Of a DNA stretch of 38,622 nucleotides, positions 2,639-38,622 are shown in pieces. A program made the translations under genes and the position numbers. Numbering within the stretch: the first letter of the stretch is position 1; every line of letters begins with the position of its first letter. The stretch covers positions 1 to 38,622 of the forward strand of contig DUEH01000004.1 in NCBI GenBank assembly GCA_011192195.1, read 5' to 3'. The stretch is from Chloroflexota bacterium. GTDB lineage: Bacteria; Chloroflexota; Anaerolineae; 4572-78. The notes under the pieces were generated by a model that saw nothing but the letters and a program-made list of their open reading frames with translations, had not been told where the DNA came from and ran no database searches.

Positions 2639-2691
2639 GGATGTAGAAGTATATGCTATACTATCGAAAATGTGAACTTGCAGGAGATAAA

Positions 2692-3612
2692 ATGATTGCT
2701 TTTGTATTGAGCGGCGGCGGTAACTACGGAGCGATGCAAGCTGGCGCTTTAGCCGCCCTGGCCGAAAGAGGGATCAAAGCGGATATGATCATCGGGACTT
2801 CTGTGGGGGCGTTGAATGGCGCAATAGCGGCTTACGATGCTTCTGCGGATGGTATGGCCAACCTGGGTCAGTTGTGGCGCAGTTTAAGCAGCGATCTCCT
2901 CTACCCCGGCGGCTACCCCGTTGCTTTGGTGCGCGTGGCAAGGGGGAAGCCCAGCCTCTTCTCCAATCGAGGCATCAGAGCCTTTCTGCGCCAACACCTG
3001 CCCGACAATGCAAAAACCTTTGGCGATTTGACTGCGGCCCGACTCTACGTCATCGCCACCGAAATTCCCAACGGCCAGGTACGCATTTTTGGCGAAGACC
3101 CGTCCGAGAACCTGAAGGACGCTCTCTTAGCCAGCGCCGCGCTGCCGCCTCTGCATCCCCCCTATCAGATTGGCGACAAGCTCTACGTAGACGGCAGTTT
3201 GGCGACCAAGTTTCCGCTCAAAATCGCCATCGAAAAGGGAGCCAGCACTATCTACGCCCTGCATATCTACCACAATCCGGCAGAACAGCCTTATGACAAT
3301 AGCATCGTGTCGCTCTCTCGCTGGTCTATTGCCAAGCTGCTTCACGATTTGGACGAAAGAGAATTGGCCTGGAGCAAAGAGCATACAACCCTAAAATTGC
3401 ACTACCTACAGCTAAAACCTGAGTTTACTCTGGCCGCCACCGATTTCAACCACAGCGCAGAAATGCTGGAAAGCGGATACAATCTGACCATTGACTACTT
3501 GAACAACCTGCCGTTGCCATTAAAAGCCAGACTCAATCAAGAGTGGCATAAATTCAAAACGCGAATCACCAAGTCTCAAAGCGGGCCGGCAGGTGAGCAG
3601 GTGAGCGGGTGA
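2692..3612 (+). CDS. Patatin-like phospholipase
   Basis: LSGGGNYG oxyanion motif, GTSVG nucleophile, DG catalytic Asp; CAGGAG RBS before ATG 2692. Confidence 0.9.
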   Translation: MIAFVLSGGGNYGAMQAGALAALAERGIKADMIIGTSVGALNGAIAAYDASADGMANLGQLWRSLSSDLLYPGGYPVALVRVARGKPSLFSNRGIRAFLRQHLPDNAKTFGDLTAARLYVIATEIPNGQVRIFGEDPSENLKDALLASAALPPLHPPYQIGDKLYVDGSLATKFPLKIAIEKGASTIYALHIYHNPAEQPYDNSIVSLSRWSIAKLLHDLDERELAWSKEHTTLKLHYLQLKPEFTLAATDFNHSAEMLESGYNLTIDYLNNLPLPLKARLNQEWHKFKTRITKSQSGPAGEQVSG

Positions 3613-28152: not shown

Positions 28153-28181
28153 CACACCCATAAAGAAGTGTGGAGAAACTT

Positions 28182-29453
28182 ATGAGTAAATCAGTTCGAT
28201 TATCAGGACTTTACAAATATTCACTGGAAAAACGCGCCAATGTTGTAGCCGAGTGGGCGAGTTTGAAGGCCGAAGAAAAAGCGGCCTTGATCAATGGCCT
28301 GCCCCTTTCAATGGGCGATGGTATGATTGAGAACGTGATTGGCTTGTACAATTTACCGCTGGGTATTGCCACCAACTTCTTGATCAACGGGGAAGAGGTC
28401 ATTGTTCCGATGGCCGTAGAAGAGCCAAGCATTGTGGCCGGACTCAGCTACGCTGCCAAACTGACCCGCTCTAGCGGTGGTTTCAGAACCAGCAGCAGCC
28501 AGCCGGTAATGATTGGTCAACTTCAGGTTTTAGGGTTGAGCGACCTGGATGAAGCCGTGACCAAGCTAAAAGCTATTGAAGCCGAACTGCTGGAAAAAGC
28601 TGATCACGATCCAATCATTCGCAAGTTTGGCGGCGGCGCAAAAGGCTTTGAGTTTCGTCCGCTGCCCGATACAGCGGTTGGGCCGATGCTGATTGTCCAC
28701 ATTTTATACGATTGCCGCGACGCAATGGGCGCTAATACCGTCAACACCGCCGCCGAAATCATTTCTCCCATCATCGAAAAAGTGACCGGTGGACGCGTGA
28801 ACTTGCGCATCATCTCCAATCTGGCAGACCGGCGCACCGCCACCGCCGAATGTACCATCAAAGCCGGGCAACTGGCGCGCGGCGATATGGACGAGGCAGC
28901 GGTTGTGCAGGGCATTGTTGAAGCCTGGGCCTTTGCCAAAGCCGATCCCTACCGCGCCGCCACCCACAATAAGGGAATTATGAACGGTATTGACGCCGTT
29001 GCTATTGCCACCGGCAACGACTGGCGCGCCATTGAAGCGGGAGCGCACGCCTTTGCGGCTCGCAACGGACGCTACACAAGCCTGACTGAATGGCGGCGCA
29101 ATGAAGACGGTGATTTAGCGGGGCGACTGCACTTGCCGCTGGCCGTTGGCACAGTTGGCGGAGCAACAAAAGTTCATCCCGCCGCTCGCGCGTCCATTAA
29201 AATTTTGGGGAACCCCAGCGCGCGCCGTTTGGCCGAAATTATGGCCGCTGTTGGCCTGGGTCAAAATCTGGCCGCCATCCGCGCTTTGGCAACTGAAGGC
29301 ATTCAGCGCGGACACATGCGCCTGCACGCCCGCCAGGTTGCCCTGGCCGCCGGCGCCACTCCTGAACAAGCGCAGGAAATTGCTAATCAATTGGTAGCAG
29401 AAGGCAACATCAAAGAAGCCAGAGCAAAGGAAATTCTTAAAAACAGTGAATAA
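28182..29453 (+). CDS. mvaA: HMG-CoA reductase, class II
   Basis: IENVIG, PMAVEEPSIVA, DAMGANTVN, ATHNKGIMNG, TGNDWRAIEAG, GIQRGHMRLHAR; GGAG RBS before ATG 28182. Confidence 0.95.
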   Translation: MSKSVRLSGLYKYSLEKRANVVAEWASLKAEEKAALINGLPLSMGDGMIENVIGLYNLPLGIATNFLINGEEVIVPMAVEEPSIVAGLSYAAKLTRSSGGFRTSSSQPVMIGQLQVLGLSDLDEAVTKLKAIEAELLEKADHDPIIRKFGGGAKGFEFRPLPDTAVGPMLIVHILYDCRDAMGANTVNTAAEIISPIIEKVTGGRVNLRIISNLADRRTATAECTIKAGQLARGDMDEAAVVQGIVEAWAFAKADPYRAATHNKGIMNGIDAVAIATGNDWRAIEAGAHAFAARNGRYTSLTEWRRNEDGDLAGRLHLPLAVGTVGGATKVHPAARASIKILGNPSARRLAEIMAAVGLGQNLAAIRALATEGIQRGHMRLHARQVALAAGATPEQAQEIANQLVAEGNIKEARAKEILKNSE

Positions 29454-29521
29454 TGAACAATGAATAATGAATAATTTTTCACTATTCATTATTCATTGTT
29501 CACTGTCCATTTTTCACTGTC
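29444..29521. repeat. Inverted 7-bp tandem repeats (TGAATAA / TTCATTA)
   Basis: agtgaataatgaacaatgaataatgaataat...ttcactattcattattcattgttcactg. Confidence 0.8.
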
Positions 29522-29535
29522 TTTTCGGAGACATT

Positions 29536-30591
29536 ATGCCCATTATGCAAGCTAACACCCCCACCGGCATTGTTGGTTACGGAGCTTACGTCCCCCGCTA
29601 TCGCGTTCCGGCTACGGAAATTTCCCGCGTGTGGACTGACGGCGTGGGGGGCGTACCCATCAAAGAAAAAGCAGTGGCCGGGCTGGACGAAGACACAATC
29701 ACTATTTCCATCGAAGCGGCTCGTAACGCCTTGCATCGGGCGCAGATCAATCCCGCGTTGTTGGGGGCTGTGTGGGTAGGCAGCGAAAGTCATCCCTACG
29801 CGGTGAAGCCCAGCGGCACCATCGTTGCCGAAGCTATCGGCGCGGTTCCGCACACGCAAGCCGGCGATTGGGAATTTGCCTGCAAGGCAGGCACGGAAGC
29901 CATGCAAGCGGGCATCGGCTTTGTGGGTAGCGGTATGCAGCCTTATGTGCTGGCTATTGGCGCAGATACCGCCCAGAGTCGCCCCGGTGACGCGCTGGAA
30001 TACACCGCCGCCGCCGGAGGCGCAGCTTATATCATCGGCAGAGCAGAAGAAAGTCTGGCTGAGTTTGAAGCCACCTATTCTTTTGTCACCGATACGCCCG
30101 ACTTTTGGCGCAGACCGCAGGCCCACTATCCCAGCCACGGTCAACGCTTCACCGGCGAACCGGCTTACTTTGAACACAGCGTTTCGGCGGTGAAAACGCT
30201 GCTGATGGAATTGGGCCGCAGCGCCAAAGATTACAACTACGTTACCTTTCACCAGCCCAACGCCAAATTTCCGCAGCGCGCCGCAAAAATGCTGGGCTTT
30301 GAAAAAGCGCAATGGGAAGCCGGACTCCTGTCTCCGGTGGTGGGCAACACCTACTCCGGCGCAACAATGTTGGGGCTGACGGCCATTTTGGACATCGCCA
30401 AACCGGGAGAGCGCATTCTGTGCGCCAGTTTTGGCTCCGGCGCCGGGTCAGACGCCTTTTCGCTGCTGGTCACAGAACGCATCGCCGGCCGGGCGAATAT
30501 GGCCCCCACCACGCAGGCGTACATCGCCCGCCGCAAAGAAGTAGATTACGCCCTGTACACCCGCTATCGCGGCAAGCTGAGTATGAAATGA
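29536..30591 (+). CDS. HMG-CoA synthase, archaeal type
   Basis: [66 protein letters not shown]. Confidence 0.93.
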
Positions 30592-30712
30592 AAAGTTCAA
30601 AATGAAAAGTTCAAAATGGCTGACAATTCGCATCGTTTACGGTAAACAAGAAACCAAAAACCTGAAACCCGAAACCTGAAACCCGAAACCTGAAACCCGA
30701 AACCCGAAACCC
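30584..30712. repeat. 7-bp tandem repeats (AAATGAA/AGTTCAA and CCYGAAA)
   Basis: gaaatgaaaagttcaaaatgaaaagttcaaaatg...cctgaaacccgaaacctgaaacccgaaacctgaaacccgaaacccgaaacc. Confidence 0.85.
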
Positions 30713-30715
30713 TTT

Positions 30716-31873
30716 ATGAGAGATATATCAATTATTGGAATAGGACAAACTCCGGTTGGAGAACATTGGGGCAGAAGTTTGCGCCATCTGGCTTACGACG
30801 CCTTGCACCTGGCAATGAAAGACGCCGGTACAGAGCGCGTAGACGCCCTGTACGTGGGCAATATGCTTTCGGGCGAAATCAGCGGGCAGGCGCATATTGG
30901 GCCGCTGATAGCCGATTTTGCCGGACTGCGCGGCATAGAGGCGGTGAAGATTGAAGCCGCCTGCGCCAGCGGAGCCGCCGCCTTTAGACAAGGCGTCATC
31001 GGCGTAGCCAGCGGTTATCAGGACGTGGTAGCGGTAGTAGGCGTAGAAAAGATGACCGACGACGTGGGCAGTCGCCTTACTGCGGGATTGGCCTCTGCCG
31101 CCGACGCCGACTACGAAACCGTTCACGGCGTCACCTTTGTGGCGCTCAATGCCCTGATTATGCAGCGCTATATGCACGAATACGGCTTGAGCAAGGGTGA
31201 TTTTGCTAATTTTAGCGTCAATGCCCACGCTAACGGGGCTAATAATCCCAACGCAATGTTTAGACGCGCCATCAGCAAAGAAACCTTTATGCGCGCGGGC
31301 GTGGTGGCCAACCCTGTCAGTCTCTTTGACGCCAGCCCAATGGCCGACGGCGCTGCCGCCGCCATCATCTGCCCTACCCGTCTGGCCCGCGAATATACCG
31401 ATAAAGCCGTCCACGTCCTGGCCTCCGCCATTGCCACCGACAGCCTGGCCGTTCATGACCGCAAAAACCCGCTCTGGTTGCAAGCGGCGGAAGATTCAGC
31501 GCATACGGCGTACCGGCAGGCAAAAATTACCCCGGCTGAACTGGACTTCTTTGAATTGCACGACGCCTTCACCATTATGGCCGCCCTCAGTTTAGAGGCT
31601 GCCGGTTTTGCCAAAGCGGGTCAGGGGACGCGATTGGCCGTTAATGGCGACATTGCTTTGGACGGTAAGCTGCCCATCGCCACGATGGGGGGGCTCAAAG
31701 CAAGAGGCCATCCGGTTGGCGCAACCGGAATGTATCAAATTGTTGAAGCCGCCTTACAGCTTCGCGGCGAGGCAGGGAAGAATCAACTTCCCCACGCCCG
31801 CCTGGGAATGACCCAAAACATCGGCGGCAGCGGCGCAACTATTGGAACGCATATTTTTAAAAGCAGTGAATAA
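30716..31873 (+). CDS. Acetoacetyl-CoA thiolase, archaeal (SCP2-thiolase-like) type
   Basis: IEAACASG, GVEKMTD, SPMADGAAA, ELHDAF, GGLKARGHPVGATG, QNIGG. Confidence 0.92.
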   Translation: MRDISIIGIGQTPVGEHWGRSLRHLAYDALHLAMKDAGTERVDALYVGNMLSGEISGQAHIGPLIADFAGLRGIEAVKIEAACASGAAAFRQGVIGVASGYQDVVAVVGVEKMTDDVGSRLTAGLASAADADYETVHGVTFVALNALIMQRYMHEYGLSKGDFANFSVNAHANGANNPNAMFRRAISKETFMRAGVVANPVSLFDASPMADGAAAAIICPTRLAREYTDKAVHVLASAIATDSLAVHDRKNPLWLQAAEDSAHTAYRQAKITPAELDFFELHDAFTIMAALSLEAAGFAKAGQGTRLAVNGDIALDGKLPIATMGGLKARGHPVGATGMYQIVEAALQLRGEAGKNQLPHARLGMTQNIGGSGATIGTHIFKSSE

Positions 31874-31948
31874 TGAACAATGAATAGTGAAAAATTCTCA
31901 CTATCCACAATTCACAATTCGTTATTCACTGCCCACTATTCACTGTTT
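31862..31948. repeat. Inverted 7-bp tandem repeats (TGAATAR / TTCACTR)
   Basis: agtgaataatgaacaatgaatagtgaaaaattctcactatccacaattcacaattc...ctattcactg. Confidence 0.75.
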
Positions 31949-31965
31949 TTCAGGAGGAAAATTAA

Positions 31966-32373
31966 ATGACTGTAGAAATAGCCCGCCACTGGCGATTGAA
32001 CTCACAACGCTATAGTTTAATAGGCGAAGAGTGCCCTGCCTGCCACTATAAAATCTTCCCCCCCCGCGATGTCTGCCCTCACTGCGCCGAAGAAGCCGGG
32101 CCGGAATTTCACTTTAGCGGCAACGGAACCGTTTTTTCGCACACCACCGTTCACACCCCCCCAGAGGGCTTTGAAGCGCAGTCGCCCTATACCGTTGCCC
32201 TTGTTAAACTGGACGAAGGGCCAATGATTACCGCTCAACTCACCGATGTGGACAATGGCGCCGTTGAAATTGGCTTGCCCGTTGAAATGGTCACGCGCAA
32301 ACTGGCCGAACAGGGCGACGAAGGTTTGATCCTCTACGGCTACAAGTTTCGCCCCCAAATGGCAATGGCCTGA
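31966..32373 (+). CDS. DUF35 Zn-ribbon/OB-fold protein (thiolase/HMGS scaffold)
   Basis: CPAC...PPRDVCPHC, GTVFSHTTVH, PYTVALVKLDEGP, YGYKFRP. Confidence 0.92.
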   Translation: MTVEIARHWRLNSQRYSLIGEECPACHYKIFPPRDVCPHCAEEAGPEFHFSGNGTVFSHTTVHTPPEGFEAQSPYTVALVKLDEGPMITAQLTDVDNGAVEIGLPVEMVTRKLAEQGDEGLILYGYKFRPQMAMA

Positions 32374-32434
32374 TGAACGACGAATGACAAACGACGAGTG
32401 ACGAATAAAGAGTCCAACAAGTGGACATTTTTTT

Positions 32435-32493
32435 GTAACCGTTGCTCCCCTCGTTTCAGCGCGCCGCGTTGAAACGAGGGGAGCAACGGTTAT
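32435..32493. repeat. GTAAC-ended palindrome; probable terminator of the mevalonate operon
   Basis: GTAACCGTTGCTCCCCTCGTTTCA...TGAAACGAGGGGAGCAACGGTTAT flanked by T-runs. Confidence 0.7.
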
Positions 32494-32508
32494 TTTTTAT
32501 TCTGCCTC

Positions 32509-32562
32509 TTGACAACTATGACGCACTGTGTTATAATTTCGATTGTATAACGCAGTGCGTCA
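32509..32562 (+). promoter_or_regulatory. Consensus sigma70 promoter with two palindromic operators (putative PhaR boxes)
   Basis: TTGACA (32509-32514)-17 nt-TATAAT (32532-32537); TGACGCACTGTGTTA at 32519-32533 and TAACGCAGTGCGTCA at 32548-32562. Confidence 0.8.
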
Positions 32563-32620
32563 CAAACTCGCCTGCTAAACAACTTAAAGCGCTATCCTAA
32601 ATTATAAAAGGAGATAAATA

Positions 32621-33004
32621 ATGGTAAAAGAAAAAGTAGAAGAAGTTGTGGAAAAAGCTGAAGAAGGTCGTAATTTCTTGCTAGACGGACTTCACAAAAT
32701 TTTATTGGCCGGTGTTGGCGCGGTATCCCTGGCTCAGGAAGAAGTTGAAGACTTTGTCGGCAAGCTCGTAGAAAAGGGCGAGATTGCCGAAAAAGATGGT
32801 CGAAAGCTGCTTGACGATATTGACAAGAAGCGCAAAGAGCAGACTGGCAAAGTTAAAAAGCAAACCGAAAAGGCCGAAAAAGAACTGGATAAACGCCTTG
32901 ACGGCCTGCTGGCTCGATTGAACGTTCCTACCAAGTCAGACATTGATGGGCTGAACGACAAAATTGCTGCCTTGACCAAAAAAATTGATGAATTGAAAAA
33001 ATAA
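32621..33004 (+). CDS. Phasin / granule-associated protein (PhaF/PhaI-like)
   Basis: HKILLAGVGAVSLAQEE, KLVEKGE, RLNVPTKSDIDGLNDKIAALTKKI; AAGGAG RBS. Confidence 0.85.
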   Translation: MVKEKVEEVVEKAEEGRNFLLDGLHKILLAGVGAVSLAQEEVEDFVGKLVEKGEIAEKDGRKLLDDIDKKRKEQTGKVKKQTEKAEKELDKRLDGLLARLNVPTKSDIDGLNDKIAALTKKIDELKK

Positions 33005-33111
33005 GCCTGGTTTTTGAAAACAGTGGATAGTGGGTTGTGGATAGCAAGGACGGGCCTGCAATTTACTATCCACTGCCCACTATTTTGGGTGGTGGTAGAA
33101 AAGTAAGTGAT

Positions 33112-33139
33112 GGAGTGTCAAACTATAGTTTGACACTCC
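33112..33139. repeat. REP-like perfect 28-bp palindrome
   Basis: GGAGTGTCAAACTATAGTTTGACACTCC. Confidence 0.7.
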
Positions 33140-33290
33140 GCAATCATCACCTGCAACTTAACCACTACCCTGTTTTCAAGGGAGAGCGTAGCGCATCTCC
33201 TTTTTTTGTATTTACTGCGCGTTTGCTCGCAAAAATCATCGTGGTACAATACATCTTAAAATTAAATCGAGCGTGTTGAGGAGCAAAGCT

Positions 33291-33899
33291 ATGTTGATCA
33301 TCAAACGGTATCCCAACCGAAAGTTGTACGATACAGAGAAAAAGCAGTACGTTACTCTGGACAAAATTGCAATTTTAATTCAGGAAGGGAAAGATATTCA
33401 GGTGATAGACCATTCTACGGGCGAAGACCTTACTGCCGTAACCCTATCGCAAATAATTTTTGAGCAGGAGAAAAAACAGAGCGGTTTTGTACCCAAAAAT
33501 GTTTTGGCCGGACTGGTTCAGGCGGGCGGTGATACGCTGAGCGCCTTCAAAAACGCCCTGACTTCTCCTCTCGACGCGCTGCCAGACGTGGATTTAGAGA
33601 TAGAACGGCGTATTAAAAAGCTTATTCAAGAGGGCAAGTTGGCGGAAGAGCAAGGCCGAAACCTGCTTGAACAACTCTTGGAAACAAGTCGCCAAACGGC
33701 CAAAAAGACTCAGGCGGGCGGCGAAACTTACCTGAAGAAGTTGCTGTCCAAGCGGGGTATTCCTTCTCAAGATGAAATTTCCAGACTGAGCGAGCAGATT
33801 GACAATCTGGCGGCCAAACTGGAGTCTCTGGCTCAGTCAAAAACTGAGGCCGCCGTAGAAGAAGGCCACGCCGGTGCGGATGATCAAGAAGAAGAATAA
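33291..33899 (+). CDS. phaR: PhaR-type DNA-binding regulator fused to a phasin-like C-terminal domain
   Basis: IIKRYPNRKLYDT...YVTLDKI...VID..TGEDLT..TLSQIIFEQE (PHB accumulation regulator N-domain); C-terminal GIPSQDEISRLSEQIDNL resembles the neighbouring phasin; GAGGAG RBS before ATG 33291. Confidence 0.8.
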   Translation: MLIIKRYPNRKLYDTEKKQYVTLDKIAILIQEGKDIQVIDHSTGEDLTAVTLSQIIFEQEKKQSGFVPKNVLAGLVQAGGDTLSAFKNALTSPLDALPDVDLEIERRIKKLIQEGKLAEEQGRNLLEQLLETSRQTAKKTQAGGETYLKKLLSKRGIPSQDEISRLSEQIDNLAAKLESLAQSKTEAAVEEGHAGADDQEEE

Positions 33900-33914
33900 T
33901 AATCCGAACCGATT

Positions 33915-34481
33915 ATGATCATTGTTGCGGGTTTTGCCAAGCGATCCTTCATCTTTCCGGCTGATTTACCCACGGCTTTTGCTTACTATACTGATTTAAG
34001 CCGTATTTTGACCTACCTGCCGCACATCTACATTGCCCGCACCTACGATGATAATCAACTTCGGATGTGTTATAATACCATTGAACTGGGAACCTACAAG
34101 ATCAATATTTTTTGCGATTTACGCGCTGAGATGGACGCGGAAGAACGCGCTTTACGAGTTTTTCCGTTAAGGGGAGTAACGCCGGTGAAGGCAAAAGCTA
34201 CCTTGCGTTCAGCAACTGCGTCAGGTCGTTTTTCCAGCGAATCTCTCTTTTTTGACGAAGGCGAGAAAACACGCATCGAATATCGTCTGGAATTGCAAGC
34301 CGAACTCCCCAAGCCAATGGGCCTGCGTTTCGTGCCAAAATCGGTGATTAACGGCATTGCCGGCAGCATCACCCATCGTCGAATCAAAGAGATTGCGGAT
34401 GGATTTATTCGACGCTCTATTGACGCTTTTCCTGAGTGGCTGGGAGAATTGGGCGATAGTAAAATGAAGATAATGGGATGA
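33915..34481 (+). CDS. SRPBCC/START-like (CoxG/DUF1997-like) protein
   Basis: FPADLPTAFAYYTD...LPHI; TRIEYRLELQAELPKPMGLRFVP followed by a long C-terminal helix. Confidence 0.55.
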   Translation: MIIVAGFAKRSFIFPADLPTAFAYYTDLSRILTYLPHIYIARTYDDNQLRMCYNTIELGTYKINIFCDLRAEMDAEERALRVFPLRGVTPVKAKATLRSATASGRFSSESLFFDEGEKTRIEYRLELQAELPKPMGLRFVPKSVINGIAGSITHRRIKEIADGFIRRSIDAFPEWLGELGDSKMKIMG

Positions 34482-34494
34482 TCTTGGTTCCTGT

Positions 34495-34547
34495 AAAAAA
34501 AGCCCCCAGGTATTCATAGTCGGCTATGAATACCTGGGGGCTTTTTT
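34495..34547. terminator. Bidirectional intrinsic terminator between convergent operons
   Basis: AAAAAAAGCCCCCAGGTATTCATAG-TCGG-CTATGAATACCTGGGGGCTTTTTT. Confidence 0.8.
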
Positions 34548-34602
34548 GTAACCATTCCCCCCTCTTGTTCCCACGCAGAGCGTGGAAACAAGAGGGGGGA
34601 AG
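34548..34602. repeat. REP-like palindrome (TTCCCACGCAGAGCGTGG-type)
   Basis: ttccccctcttgttcccacgcagagcgtggaaacaagagggggaa. Confidence 0.65.
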
Positions 34603-34609
34603 TGATGTG

Positions 34610-36451
34610 CTATATTACCAGCTCATCAAGCCCCAACTCGGTCAGTTTTTGCGCCGATGGGCGACCACTTTCCCAATCCCAATCTCGATGAGCGTAATAT
34701 TCTTTGAGCATTAGCTGCCAATCGGGCACAAAGCCATCGGTGGGGCCGCTGGCGAGAGGGGTATTCAAGAGGATGGGCATTACTTCATCCTGCCGAGGCT
34801 TCAATCCCAGTTTTAGATTGAGCAGGCGTTTCAGGTTAAAGATGCGCTCTCCGCCAAGAACCAACTCATCCAGCGATATTTCTTTCCCCAAAATCGCTTG
34901 AAAAGTCTCCGGCAATACTTGCAGGTTTACATTGACAAAGACGCAACAACCGCAAGCATCCACCATCGAGCGATAATCCTGATGCTTTGCCACCAGCGGC
35001 GCTTTGCCCGCTTCCTGGCGGTGGTCATCAGAGACAATCCCCAATTGATCAAAGGTATGCCCTGTTTCCACAAAATAGAAATCGCTTTTGTTGTGGCAAG
35101 CCCCTCTGGGCGAGGTGAGATAAACCAGGGCCATCCCGCTGAAAGCGCGGGGGTCATGCATGCCGGGGTCCATTCCGTTGACCTGCACCGCCAGTCCGGG
35201 CGCGTTAAAATGTTCTTCCATTGCGCGCACGCCGTCGGCCAAAATGTCGCCAAAGCCGTCGCGAACGGCGATTTTTTTCAGCAATTCAATAGTTTGGGCA
35301 GGATTGCCCCATTCCACCGTTTCGCCCTTGCTGTCTGCGGAAGACAGGTAGCCTTGCTCGCTGAGCCAGGCGGCAAAGCCAATGACCGCTCCGGCGCTGA
35401 TGACATCCATTCCCGCCGAATCGCATATCCAGTCGAAATAGGAGACGGCTTTCAGGTCTTCAATCAGCAGGTTTGACCCCAGTGAGGCGACGGCTTCGTA
35501 TTCCGGGCCATCCGTTGTACCCAGCGCGTAGGGATCATCTTCGCCTTCGATGGTCACTTCGCTGCCGCATTGCACGGTGCAGCCCCAGCAGCCCGTGCTG
35601 CCGGTACGAATGGACATTGACATTGCCGCGCCGCTCAGGTTCAACGCGCCTTCGTAATCGCCCTCTGTCCAGTATTTGGCGGGCAAGGAGCCGACCATCT
35701 GGAAGTATTCCAGCCCGCTGGCAGTTCCCAGGTCTTTGAGGAGATCGGCGGCAAAGTCTGCTTTGATGTGCGCCATTGCTTTGCGAAAGGCCAGATTGAC
35801 CGCTTCTTTGTCTGATACGGGAATTAGTCCCTTACCACGAATGGCGATGGCTTTGAGCTTTTTAGACCCCATTACCGCGCCCATGCCGGCGCGTCCGGCG
35901 GCGCGCGCGTCGGCGTTCATAATGGAGGCAAAACGAACCAGGTTTTCGCCCGCCGGGCCAATGCAAGCCACGCGAGTGCGCGAGTCTCCGGATTCGGCGA
36001 TGATTTCGTTTTGGGTTTGATAGGTGTCCAATCCCCACAGGTGTTCGGCGGGACGCAGTTTTGGCGGCAGGCCTTCACGAATGAGCAGGTAGACCGGCGT
36101 GGGCGATTGCCCGGTGATGATGATGCCGTCGTAGCCCGCTCGTTTTAGTTCGTGTCCGGTGTAGCCGCCCGCGCTGGATTCGCCAAAGAGGCCGGTAAGC
36201 GGGCTTTTGGAGATGAAGGCGTGCCTGGAAGCGGAAGGGGTGCGCGTGCCGGTCAGTGGGCCGGTCATCATAATCAGGGGGTTGTCTGGCCCCAGCGGAT
36301 CGGTGGCGGCGTCAACCATATCAAAGAGATAGCGCGCGCCCAGTCCGCTGTTACCGATGAATTGTTCGGCCCAGTCTTGATTCAACGCTTCATCGCGCAG
36401 TTTGCCCGTACTCAGGTTCACGTGGAGAATTTTTTCCAGATAGCCGTTCAT
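34610..36451 (-). CDS. aor: Aldehyde:ferredoxin oxidoreductase family (W/Mo-bis-pterin, 4Fe-4S)
   Basis: SKSPLTG, CIGPAGENLV, GRAGMGAVMGSKKLKAI, CWGCTVQCG, GPEYE, CDSAGMD, HDPR, EYYAHRDWD; GGAG RBS before ATG 36451. Confidence 0.92.
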   Translation of the reverse strand: MNGYLEKILHVNLSTGKLRDEALNQDWAEQFIGNSGLGARYLFDMVDAATDPLGPDNPLIMMTGPLTGTRTPSASRHAFISKSPLTGLFGESSAGGYTGHELKRAGYDGIIITGQSPTPVYLLIREGLPPKLRPAEHLWGLDTYQTQNEIIAESGDSRTRVACIGPAGENLVRFASIMNADARAAGRAGMGAVMGSKKLKAIAIRGKGLIPVSDKEAVNLAFRKAMAHIKADFAADLLKDLGTASGLEYFQMVGSLPAKYWTEGDYEGALNLSGAAMSMSIRTGSTGCWGCTVQCGSEVTIEGEDDPYALGTTDGPEYEAVASLGSNLLIEDLKAVSYFDWICDSAGMDVISAGAVIGFAAWLSEQGYLSSADSKGETVEWGNPAQTIELLKKIAVRDGFGDILADGVRAMEEHFNAPGLAVQVNGMDPGMHDPRAFSGMALVYLTSPRGACHNKSDFYFVETGHTFDQLGIVSDDHRQEAGKAPLVAKHQDYRSMVDACGCCVFVNVNLQVLPETFQAILGKEISLDELVLGGERIFNLKRLLNLKLGLKPRQDEVMPILLNTPLASGPTDGFVPDWQLMLKEYYAHRDWDWESGRPSAQKLTELGLDELVI

Positions 36452-36509
36452 TGATGCTCCTTGCAAGCTTTTAGCGGTCAGTTTTCAGCTTTTAGCTGAC
36501 CGCTGAAAG

Positions 36510-37676
36510 CTAAAAATCAATATCCTTGCCCTGGTAGGCGTAGCGGAAGAGTTGGGTGGTTTCGTTGGTGTCGGGGATACGGCTGCCCATGACAATGACG
36601 GAATCGGCTTCGGCAAAGGCGACAAGTTGGGCCAGCGCGGCTTCAAATTCCTCCGCTGAGGCGTCAATGGTCTCTTTAATGCTCAAGGGTTGTCCTACGG
36701 CAACAGAAAGTTCTTGAATAGCCTTTATCAGACTATCTGCGCCTTCTTTGGGTGTGGCGGCGGGCAGGCCCAGAAAGCGGCTTAGTTCGTGGAAACGGGT
36801 TTCGCCGGGGTTGTTATCAGTGAATTGGATGGTGTAGGGTAGAAAAAGGGCCACGGCTCTGCCGTGCGGCACGTGGAAGACGGCTCCCAAACTATGCCCC
36901 AACGAGTGCGCCAGAGCGGGCATGGCGTTGCTAAAACTCAAGCCGGCCAGGGTGGCGGCGTTGTGCATCTTTTCGCGGGCTTCCATATCGTCGCCATTGG
37001 CAACGGCGCGGGGCAGATAGGTGAAGACCAGTTGCATAGCTTTTAAGGCCAGCCCGTCGCTGAAGTCATTGCGCAAACTGCAGGTGTAGGCTTCAATAGC
37101 GTGGGTCAGCGCGTCCAGACCGGTATCGGCGGTGAGGCGAGGGGGCATTTTTTGCGCCAGAAGCGGGTCAATAATGGCGATGTCCGGCAGCAGTTCCGGG
37201 GAACTAAGACCCATTTTACGCCCGTCGGGTTCTGAAATAACGGTAGCCCAGGTTGCTTCTGAGCCGGTTCCGCTGGTAGTGGGAATGGCGATGAGTCTGG
37301 CTTTGTCGCGCAGGTTCAGCGCTTCAAAGGGGTTTATGTCTTCCGGGGTCATATTCGGGTGAACATACATCACCCACATTGCCTTGGCTGCATCCATTGC
37401 CGACCCGCCGCCCAGCCCGACAATCCAGTCCGGTTCAAAGGCGCTCATTTCTTTGGCGCCTTTCATAATTGTGGCGGCGGAAGGTTCCGGTTCCACATCG
37501 CTGAAGGTCTGGCAGCTTATACCGGCTTGCGCAAAATACTCGCTGATCAGGTCTACAAAGCCCAATTTGACCATCATTGGGTCTGCGACAATAAAAGCGC
37601 GGTTCCCGCCAAGGGTTTCCAGATGCTCCAGCGCGTCTTCGCCAAAAATTATTTCAGGAGATCGAAAGTACCACAT
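36510..37676 (-). CDS. Iron-containing alcohol dehydrogenase
   Basis: GLGGGSAMDAAK, IPTTSGTGSEAT, DALTHAIEAY, AHSLGHSLG, HVPHG. Confidence 0.95.
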   Translation of the reverse strand: MWYFRSPEIIFGEDALEHLETLGGNRAFIVADPMMVKLGFVDLISEYFAQAGISCQTFSDVEPEPSAATIMKGAKEMSAFEPDWIVGLGGGSAMDAAKAMWVMYVHPNMTPEDINPFEALNLRDKARLIAIPTTSGTGSEATWATVISEPDGRKMGLSSPELLPDIAIIDPLLAQKMPPRLTADTGLDALTHAIEAYTCSLRNDFSDGLALKAMQLVFTYLPRAVANGDDMEAREKMHNAATLAGLSFSNAMPALAHSLGHSLGAVFHVPHGRAVALFLPYTIQFTDNNPGETRFHELSRFLGLPAATPKEGADSLIKAIQELSVAVGQPLSIKETIDASAEEFEAALAQLVAFAEADSVIVMGSRIPDTNETTQLFRYAYQGKDIDF

Positions 37677-37691
37677 AACTTACTCCTTTTT

Positions 37692-37762
37692 TAATGAACA
37701 ATGAAAAATGAACAGTGAAGAGTGAAAAATTATTCATTATTCACTGTTCATTATTCACTGAA
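37692..37762. repeat. Inverted 7-bp tandem repeats (TGAAYAR / TTCAYTR)
   Basis: taatgaacaatgaaaaatgaacagtgaagagtgaaaaattattcattattcactgttcattattcactgaa. Confidence 0.8.
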
Positions 37763-37764
37763 TT

Positions 37765-38184
37765 TTAGAAGGGAAATTCGGTAGGCACAAAGGTGGCGCA
37801 GTGAACCAGTTCATTGGATGCTTTAACGTTGCGCATAATTTTAGCCATGTTGCCGGTCAGTTTAAGTTTACGGGTGAGCATTGCTTTGATGGGGTCAAGA
37901 CCGTCGTCAATGACTTCTTTGAAAGTTTTCACGCTGCCGCGAAATTCAAATTCAGGCTTGAAGTCATCTTTGTTTTCGGCGCGAAGCGCTTTTCGACATT
38001 CGCCGTGCCACAGGTCAAGATAAACGTATCGGTCTTCATCCAGAGAGCTTCCTTTGGCTTCTACCACAAAGTAGATGTCGCCTTCCCAGGCTTTAGCGGC
38101 TTCGGCGTAGGCTTTGCTGTTGTTCAACTCTTCGCATAAGCGTTTAGCCCATTCATCGGTACCAAATAAAATTTTGTCAGACAT
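37765..38184 (-). CDS. SCP2 sterol/lipid-binding domain protein
   Basis: FGTDEW..L...LNNS..Y.EAAK.WEGD, YLDLWHGEC, LDPIKAMLTRKLKLTGNMAKIMR; GGAGG RBS before ATG 38184. Confidence 0.85.
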   Translation of the reverse strand: MSDKILFGTDEWAKRLCEELNNSKAYAEAAKAWEGDIYFVVEAKGSSLDEDRYVYLDLWHGECRKALRAENKDDFKPEFEFRGSVKTFKEVIDDGLDPIKAMLTRKLKLTGNMAKIMRNVKASNELVHCATFVPTEFPF

Positions 38185-38231
38185 AGAATTCCTCCATACA
38201 AGGTGAGTAAAATTGTGGGTAGTCAAGGTGA

Positions 38232-38281
38232 TGACGCATCGCGTTAAACGCAATTGTAACACACTGCGTCACAGGTGTCAA
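38232..38281 (-). promoter_or_regulatory. Sigma70 promoter with two palindromic operators (putative PhaR boxes)
   Basis: On the - strand TTGACA (38281-38276)-17 nt-TACAAT (38258-38253); TGACGCAGTGTGTTA (38271-38257) and TAACGCGATGCGTCA (38246-38232). Confidence 0.8.
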
Positions 38282-38317
38282 TTGGCGCTTCAGCGGCGCA
38301 ACTGAGGGGCGGGGCGT

Positions 38318-38622
38318 CTATTGCTCAGGGTTCAAGAGCAAAATATATCCGCGCCGGGGGATAGTTTTTAGATGAGTTGGGTTTTTAGGGTCTGGCTCAA
38401 TTTTTTTTCTTAAGTTTTTGACGTGCATTCTTACCAGATCAGGGCTGCCGGTGCCGGGCGGGTAGTCCCAAATTTTTTGCAAAAGTTGCTCGCTGGCAAA
38501 GACTTTCCCCGGATGGATCATAAAATAATGGAGCAGGTCAAATTCAATTGGCGTGAGGCGGCGGACGCCGGTTTGGGTTGTTACCTGAAAAGTTTCGTAG
38601 TTCAGGCTTAGGCCGCTTTGTT
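38318..38622 (-). CDS. OmpR-family response regulator, C-terminal winged-helix part (5' end outside the window)
   Basis: ...RLTPIEFDLLHYFMIHPGKVF...LLQKIWDY...LVRMHVKNLRKKIEPDPKNPTHLKTIPRRGY. Confidence 0.88.
   Translation of the reverse strand, partial: QSGLSLNYETFQVTTQTGVRRLTPIEFDLLHYFMIHPGKVFASEQLLQKIWDYPPGTGSPDLVRMHVKNLRKKIEPDPKNPTHLKTIPRRGYILLLNPEQ

Follow-up and report, generated by a model that had tools for sequence, protein, structure and literature searches.

What binds the palindromic boxes that recur in the same position at two promoters on either side of a phasin locus in an Anaerolineae genome, and to what signal would such a binder respond? The window, meaning the whole stretch of 38,622 nucleotides analysed here, is part of contig C236 of an assembly of 3.23 Mb in 301 contigs that is 73.8% complete. 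Read directly, the phasin promoter on the forward strand runs TTGACA (32509-32514), acta, TGACGCACTGTGT, TATAAT (32532-32537), and the SCP2 promoter on the reverse strand runs TTGACA (38281-38276), cctg, TGACGCAGTGTGT, TACAAT (38258-38253). Their elements are as follows.

32509 to 32514, forward strand: -35 hexamer TTGACA of the phasin promoter (12/12 sigma-70 match, 17-nt spacer)
32519 to 32533, forward strand: putative operator box 1 of the phasin promoter, TGACGCACTGTGTTA, in the spacer (PWM score 29.0, the genome maximum)
32532 to 32537, forward strand: -10 hexamer TATAAT of the phasin promoter, with TG directly 5'
32548 to 32562, forward strand: putative operator box 2 of the phasin promoter, TAACGCAGTGCGTCA, after a 14-nt gap from box 1 (PWM score 26.5)
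38276 to 38281, reverse strand: -35 hexamer TTGACA of the SCP2 promoter (11/12 sigma-70 match, 17-nt spacer)
38257 to 38271, reverse strand: putative operator box 1 of the SCP2 promoter, TGACGCAGTGTGTTA, in the spacer and in the same register as at the phasin promoter (PWM score 21.7)
38253 to 38258, reverse strand: -10 hexamer TACAAT of the SCP2 promoter, with TG directly 5'
38232 to 38246, reverse strand: putative operator box 2 of the SCP2 promoter, TAACGCGATGCGTCA, after a 10-nt gap from box 1 (PWM score 21.4)

A sequence-only reading had claimed a common build at both promoters, and re-reading the sequence confirmed the coordinates, gaps and registers of all four boxes. Box 1 fills the 17-bp spacer and overlaps the -10, its final TA forming the first bases of that hexamer at the phasin promoter, and box 2 lies around +1. 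Phasin box 2 would sit at about +4 to +18, if the start is 7 nt past the -10, and SCP2 box 2 at about +1 to +15. All four boxes are 15-bp palindromes of the form TRACGCA-N-TGCGTYA, two per promoter. The pattern TRACGCNNTGYGTYA, at no more than one mismatch, gave eight strand matches in the window, all of which corresponded to these four sites, in comparison to an expectation of 0.22 and a maximum of 2 in 100 shuffles. The phasin and SCP2 promoters also ranked first and second (12/12 and 11/12) in a promoter scan of positions 32300-38622.

The genes and terminators around the two promoters are listed below.

32441 to 32487, forward strand: strong intrinsic terminator, a 20-pair stem then a T run, closing the HMGR/HMGCS-like/thiolase/DUF35 operon
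32621 to 33004, forward strand: phasin gene, 127 aa (PF05597, 60.8 bits, cut-off 28.8)
33291 to 33899, forward strand: gene for the PhaR-like regulator, 202 aa, with PHB_acc_N at residues 3-62 and a phasin-like helical C-terminus at residues ~100-185
33915 to 34481, forward strand: third gene of the operon, 188 aa, weakly DUF1997-like (PF09366, 23.2 bits, under the cut-off of 27)
34500 to 34543, bidirectional: terminator between the convergent operons, from a terminator scan
34610 to 36466, reverse strand: aldehyde:ferredoxin oxidoreductase (AOR) gene, last in the SCP2 operon (AFOR_N, E 8e-79; AFOR_C, E 2e-107)
36510 to 37676, reverse strand: iron-containing alcohol dehydrogenase (FeADH) gene, from a Pfam search
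37765 to 38184, reverse strand: gene for an SCP2 lipid-carrier-domain protein, with its likely start ATG at 38184 behind GGAGG

The terminators at 32441-32487 and 34500-34543 mark off two convergent operons, and the first of them insulates the phasin promoter from the operon upstream. The 127-aa phasin scored 77.3 bits against TIGR01837, under the cut-off of 94.7. For the SCP2 gene, the ATG at 38184 was preferred because the GTG at 38262 given in the ORF list overlaps the promoter and orthologues start at the equivalent ATG. Several further features lie nearby. The upstream operon (28170-32373) encodes HMG-CoA reductase, an HMGCS-like protein, an SCP-x-type thiolase and a DUF35/OB-fold protein, an arrangement typical of the archaeal-type upper mevalonate pathway. 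The terminator just before the phasin promoter closes this operon, and no box was found between its coordinates. The 286-nt spacer between phasin and phaR holds a perfect 28-nt palindrome, GGAGTGTCAAACTA/TAGTTTGACACTCC (33112-33139), with no T run after it, which may serve as a protein-binding site or tune phasin expression relative to that of the regulator. This spacer contained no box, only TGGTACAAT at 33242-33250. On the strand of the SCP2 promoter, an OmpR-type response regulator gene occupies 38318-38620 and continues to C236:39070; no clear terminator separates it from the SCP2 operon, and read-through from the one into the other is possible.

We then considered the motif across the whole genome. 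The sequence-only reading had named a high-copy repeat among the threats to its proposal, and the motif proved not to be one: TRACRCNNYGYGTYA occurred at eight positions in 3,231,410 bases, and a repeat-element reading was rejected on that count. Four positions are in the window, two at contig C280 and two inside ORFs. Six of the eight belong to three promoters of like register (TTGACA, N4, box 1, TA(T/C)AAT, box 2) with gaps of 9-14 nt between box 1 and box 2. The third of these promoters (C280:28381-28440, reverse strand) runs TTGACA, ccga, TAACGCAATGCGT, TATAAT and, after a 9-nt gap between boxes, TGACGCATTGCGTTA, with boxes at 28405 and 28381. It precedes a gene for a 183-aa GNAT protein resembling the Pat acetyltransferase domain, and would extend the predicted regulon past the window. 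A position weight matrix (PWM) trained on 143 sites from other genomes only, this genome being left out, ranked the six boxes of the phasin, SCP2 and GNAT promoters, including the window's four, among the top eight sites of the genome. It added an intergenic site at C174:339-353 (score 19.9, overlapping TATAAAAT), which lies between a truncated reverse-strand gene at the contig end (its product begins MSANGNNG) and a divergent alpha/beta-hydrolase-like gene, and is possibly a fourth target in this genome. The two ORF-internal boxes with high scores, C241:1191 at the 3' end of an ABC-permease-like gene and C255:10756 in a small ORF adjoining a terminase-like gene in a prophage-like region, are probably due to chance.

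The candidate binder is the product of 33291-33899, the one PHB_acc_N gene in this genome, which scored 97 bits against PF07879 (cut-off 25). Among 68 aligned relatives, PHB_acc_N was found in 68/68 and Phasin PF05597 in 59/68, whilst PHB_acc PF05233 gave no match at E <= 0.01 in the window protein and none in the relatives (0/68). The TIGR01848 match (87.8 bits) fell under the equivalog cut-off of 109.45 and its alignment was confined to residues 3-88. Residues 103-182 share 30% identity with the neighbouring phasin (E 4e-8), and by this similarity the C-terminal half is a paralogue of the very phasin under its predicted control. The AlphaFold2 model (mean pLDDT 85) comprised a compact N-terminal domain (1-62) joined by a flexible linker to three long helices. 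A Foldseek search of the PDB with this model gave no match at E <= 0.001, and VIA-align, run wide, returned generic helical matches only (Z up to 6.2, residues about 79-158); these structure comparisons barely covered the N-terminal domain. By sequence, no solved PhaR relative was found in the PDB, the best match being a helical fragment at E 0.023. The regulator is thus best described, from its sequence, as a PhaR head joined to a phasin; its DNA-binding domain and predicted operator place it in the PhaR superfamily, and its scores indicate that it is not an equivalog of classical PhaR.

The boxes themselves point to the same protein. All four carry CRCR-N-YGYG, and their core, CGCA-N-TGCG, is an instance of the PhaR core YGCRNYGCR. 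In the Sinorhizobium meliloti study, that motif was derived by MEME and confirmed by EMSA, mutation of the palindrome abolished the shift, and the arms were AT-rich (PMC12542648). Ralstonia eutropha PhaR sites were defined by EMSA and footprinting, with the consensus YTKNTGCRNYGCANMAR (PMC12849132). The R. eutropha consensus and the window boxes are alike in their single central base, TGC core and A at position 7, and differ at position 4 from the centre (G here, A in R. eutropha).

Conservation of the boxes follows the regulator. Orthologues of 48-56% identity occurred in 8/60 relatives, each with a phasin gene adjoining. In 7/9 loci of the relatives, the promoter and both boxes precede the phasin-phaR pair; the other two have one box directly after TATAAT, before phaR itself. 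An extra single box after TATAAT before phaR was observed in five loci of relatives (L007, L008, L010, L011, L015) and in L140 of family f67, and in these loci it would give phaR separate autoregulation. The SCP2 operons of relatives likewise retained a box upstream: in the closest genera, five SCP2-FeADH operons carry a single box after TACAAT.

A wider set of loci was drawn from a species-genome scan (565 candidates), taking the best 80 of 534 relatives, almost all of them Anaerolineae-type Chloroflexota MAGs. These best 80 of 534 loci (413,718 bases) contained 103 boxes at no more than one mismatch versus none for the reversed-pattern control, and all but one of the 103 lay upstream of phaR. 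At least one box was present in 61/80 of these loci and 19/80 had none at that threshold. The exact composite of TTGAC-N5-box 1 plus box 2, with gaps of 9-16 nt, occurred in 32/80 and was absent from 48/80. Across 61 relatives, the pattern exceeded its reversed control only in regulator-bearing genomes: by hand sums, 42 pattern matches versus 16 control matches in the nine genomes with a regulator, and 46 versus 107 in the 49 without. The build of promoter plus box was also found before phasin genes in f67, a Chloroflexia-like family that bears PhaC.

On these comparisons, the four boxes of the window and the two of the GNAT promoter are very probably operators of the regulator encoded at 33291-33899, and we regard this assignment as strong on computational grounds. 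The proposal that box 1 occupies a repressor position and that the PhaR-like protein is the candidate binder therefore gained support from the comparative tests. A different binder, such as the OmpR-type response regulator, whose gene ends at 38318, ~36 nt before the SCP2 -35, would account for the boxes by proximity; however, the boxes go with phaR in most of the 80 loci and across classes, the palindrome matches the PhaR core, and the SCP2 promoters of relatives keep their box without a response-regulator neighbour. OmpR-type regulators, furthermore, usually read direct repeats. That the response regulator or any other factor is the binder is accordingly very improbable.

The regulator, as a dimer or higher oligomer, would bind the 15-bp palindrome and block RNA polymerase at promoters otherwise of consensus strength. 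Box 1 lies inside an optimal 17-bp spacer and box 2 over the start region, which argues for repression by promoter occlusion, a mode of action that we consider highly likely from this arrangement. A MerR-like activator acting in the spacer was also considered. MerR-type activators untwist an over-long promoter spacer of 19-20 bp, and activation of this type is not needed where a 17-bp spacer separates consensus hexamers; it was rejected on the presence of both at all three promoters.

The predicted regulon comprises, in this genome, the autoregulated phasin-phaR-DUF1997-like operon, the SCP2-FeADH-AOR operon and the Pat-like GNAT gene. In the closest genera, boxes were also found at tandem acyl-CoA dehydrogenase genes (6 loci), in the spacer before a gene for a 650-aa membrane Fe-S/CCG oxidoreductase (7 loci) and at a second phasin gene. 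The acyl-CoA dehydrogenase orthologue of this genome sits right at the beginning of contig C43, which leaves its promoter outside the assembly; orthologues of the Fe-S/CCG oxidoreductase and of a 580-aa protein gave no tblastn match in this 73.8%-complete genome. Among the best 80 of 534 loci, a same-strand DUF1997-like homologue was found downstream of phaR in 27/80, a patatin-like lipase gene directly downstream on the same strand in 20/80 (L044-L123), and an AOR gene adjoining phaR in 0/80, the last arrangement being confined to the closest family. A patatin-like lipase gene also directly follows phaR in L140, L142-L146 and L151. The only patatin gene of the window (2653-3612) is 30 kb from phaR.

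What would lift the repression? By analogy with the classical PhaR switch, the phasin-like half would stick to a hydrophobic storage body and pull the repressor off the DNA, which would free the coat and lipid-turnover genes for expression. Release of this kind is, in our judgement, evenly poised. The occurrence of storage enzymes, including those for polyhydroxyalkanoate (PHA), was compared with that of the regulator in 251 Anaerolineae genomes, evenly sampled and at least 90% complete except for this genome. The regulator was present in 81/251. A PhaC-like gene was present in 13/251, five of which also had the regulator, whereas the wax-ester/triacylglycerol synthase (WS/DGAT) was present in 53/251, all 53 of which carry the regulator, in comparison to 0/170 regulator-free genomes (Fisher 5e-34). 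The 53 WS/DGAT genomes span 13 families, and each of these belongs to the 19 families, out of 56, in which the regulator occurs (1e-8); both Fisher values overstate independence because the genomes are related. The WS/DGAT of this genome, on contig C82, is intact and contains HHAIADG, which we take to be its catalytic motif.

In a classical PHA circuit the boxes would still be PhaR operators, but the signal would be PHA, and its synthase would be one that the models fail to recognise or that lies in unassembled DNA. This genome gave no TIGR01836 or PF07167 match, an absence that is weak alone because the assembly is only 73.8% complete, and both the phasin and the DNA-binding domain families were first described on PHA granules. 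Family f67, moreover, combines this regulator type and operator build (regulator in 18/18) with a PhaC-like gene in 17/18 and WS/DGAT in 3/18; on these counts the module is not tied specifically to neutral lipid. However, TIGR01836, a model that also recognised the class I synthase of a control genome, was silent in all eight relatives with a regulator orthologue and in 76 of the 81 regulator-bearing Anaerolineae (at least 90% complete). In five further carriers it gave one weak hydrolase match only (E 2.5e-4, 20.7 bits), in a closed 4.5-Mb chromosome, and PF07167 matched 0/5 regulator carriers. The sister family f4 presents the reverse picture, with a PHA synthase in 17/31 genomes and a single weak regulator match (1/31, E 5.4e-4). 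The classical circuit is thus unlikely here. Two Anaerolineae families carry a class III-type PHA synthase, f4 and f25 (5/6 in the latter), and relatives G012-G055 belong to f3 and f4; apart from the one weak match in f4, neither f4 nor f25 had a PhaR-type gene detectable with this query.

In a phylum-wide sample, 17/20 genomes with WS/DGAT also had a PHB_acc_N-type gene and 3/20 did not. PhaC or WS/DGAT was found in 32/47 carriers of the regulator versus 16/204 non-carriers. The regulator tracks hydrophobic carbon storage in general. The WS/DGAT genes themselves had no box in promoter position in 12/12 loci, and one of these loci (L131) had a single weak PWM match (9.1) ~580 nt upstream. These box-free genes, the 28 of 81 regulator-bearing Anaerolineae with no WS/DGAT match, the three WS/DGAT genomes that lack a PHB_acc_N-type gene and family f67 all weigh against a strict tie to lipid. 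Fatty acyl-CoA reductase (PF07993) was tried as a further marker and set aside as uninformative, because it matched all 14 control genomes through weak, generic NAD-binding matches only.

A regulator that senses a soluble lipid metabolite (an acyl-CoA, fatty alcohol or aldehyde), with operators and repression as above, would suit a regulon whose enzymes serve the catabolism and redox conversion of acyl, alcohol and aldehyde compounds, and 28 of the 81 regulator-bearing Anaerolineae had no WS/DGAT match and, bar one, no PhaC match. This reading also seems improbable, however, as the C-terminal half of the protein is a phasin paralogue with long, amphipathic-type helices and no pocket-like domain, and the precedent in the family is surface binding. 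PhaR binds polyethylene, polystyrene and polylactide via non-specific hydrophobic contacts, according to published work (PMC2873406), and its capture by a lipid droplet is therefore physically plausible.

The explanation we favour as a whole, and consider likely from the sequence evidence, is a PhaR-type autorepressor that acts by promoter occlusion and is released on a hydrophobic storage body, probably of neutral lipid. Taken separately, the identity of that body is less secure: co-occurrence makes neutral lipid and not PHA, in the form of the wax ester or triacylglycerol that WS/DGAT produces, a serious candidate in this lineage, at slightly less than even confidence. The genomes that show this co-occurrence are related to one another; as a hypothesis, the neutral-lipid reading is well supported by it. 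More tentatively, the PhaR and phasin of Anaerolineae may act as the coat and sensor of wax-ester or triacylglycerol bodies, with a regulon for the anaerobic turnover of stored fatty alcohols and acids. The parts of such a route would be the SCP2 carrier, the iron alcohol dehydrogenase, the tungsten-type aldehyde:ferredoxin oxidoreductase and the acyl-CoA dehydrogenases, with the membrane Fe-S oxidoreductase taking the electrons of the turnover enzymes. The route would be switched on as the lipid body captures the phasin half of the repressor.

Four known systems were compared with this circuit. The PhaR-PhaP1 system of Cupriavidus necator (Ralstonia eutropha) H16 shares PHB_acc_N, palindromes built on a TGC core around a single central base, and self-repression, which is predicted here; its PhaR sites adjoin the -35/-10 and cover the start site of the phasin promoter (PMC12849132). 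Box 1 lies within the spacer here and upstream of the -35 in R. eutropha. Unlike R. eutropha PhaR, the window regulator lacks PHB_acc and has a phasin-paralogue C-terminus instead, and searches for a PHA synthase came up empty in this genome and in most regulator carriers of the class. The AniA/PhaR regulon of S. meliloti shares the core YGCRNYGCR, the AT-rich arms and two copies at phasin promoters; non-phasin targets there have a single copy, placed between the -10 and the start, and the regulon reaches into carbon metabolism (PMC12542648). It belongs to another phylum and its regulator has another C-terminal half. The targets also differ, being SCP2-ADH-AOR and GNAT genes here (with acyl-CoA dehydrogenases in relatives) versus depolymerases and central carbon genes among those described for S. 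meliloti. The predicted circuit would work as these two do, but departs from them in its phasin-type sensor half, in the position of box 1 in the spacer, in its targets and in the fact that most carriers in the class had no PHA synthase match.

Pseudomonas putida PhaF likewise unites a PF05597-type phasin module and a DNA-binding module in one protein linking granule and DNA (PMC7590123). The window regulator differs from it in having a defined palindrome as its predicted target and in its reversed module order. PhaF has its phasin half at the N-terminus, and the other half, which binds DNA without sequence specificity, is histone-like. For the lipid reading, the closest analogy in function may be MLDS/MLDSR of Rhodococcus jostii RHA1, in which neutral-lipid droplets recruit the very regulator that controls a gene for their coat; these protein families are not known to be related to PhaR and phasin.

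In the literature covered, that outside subscription journals, we found no report that connects PhaR or phasins with WS/DGAT and no description of PhaR in Chloroflexota. A hint of lipid storage exists in atfA (WS/DGAT), which has been reported for Ca. Promineofilum and for a number of Anaerolineae MAGs (PMC9942424). One preprint takes PF07879 as a stand-in for PHA production (bioRxiv 10.1101/2024.12.02.626346). Given the counts of regulator and PhaC above, most of the Anaerolineae with this domain would be wrongly labelled in that way; if the lipid reading is true, PF07879 marks hydrophobic carbon storage generally and not PHA. A natural fusion of a PhaR head and a phasin would also make the sequestration model of PhaR structurally explicit. 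If the lipid link is true, bacterial neutral-lipid bodies would have control of the PhaR/phasin type, of which we found no account in the literature covered. Transcription control is almost unknown in Anaerolineae, and the locus offers an operator, a regulon and a regulator, all testable, for this large and mostly uncultured group of sludge, sediments and soils.
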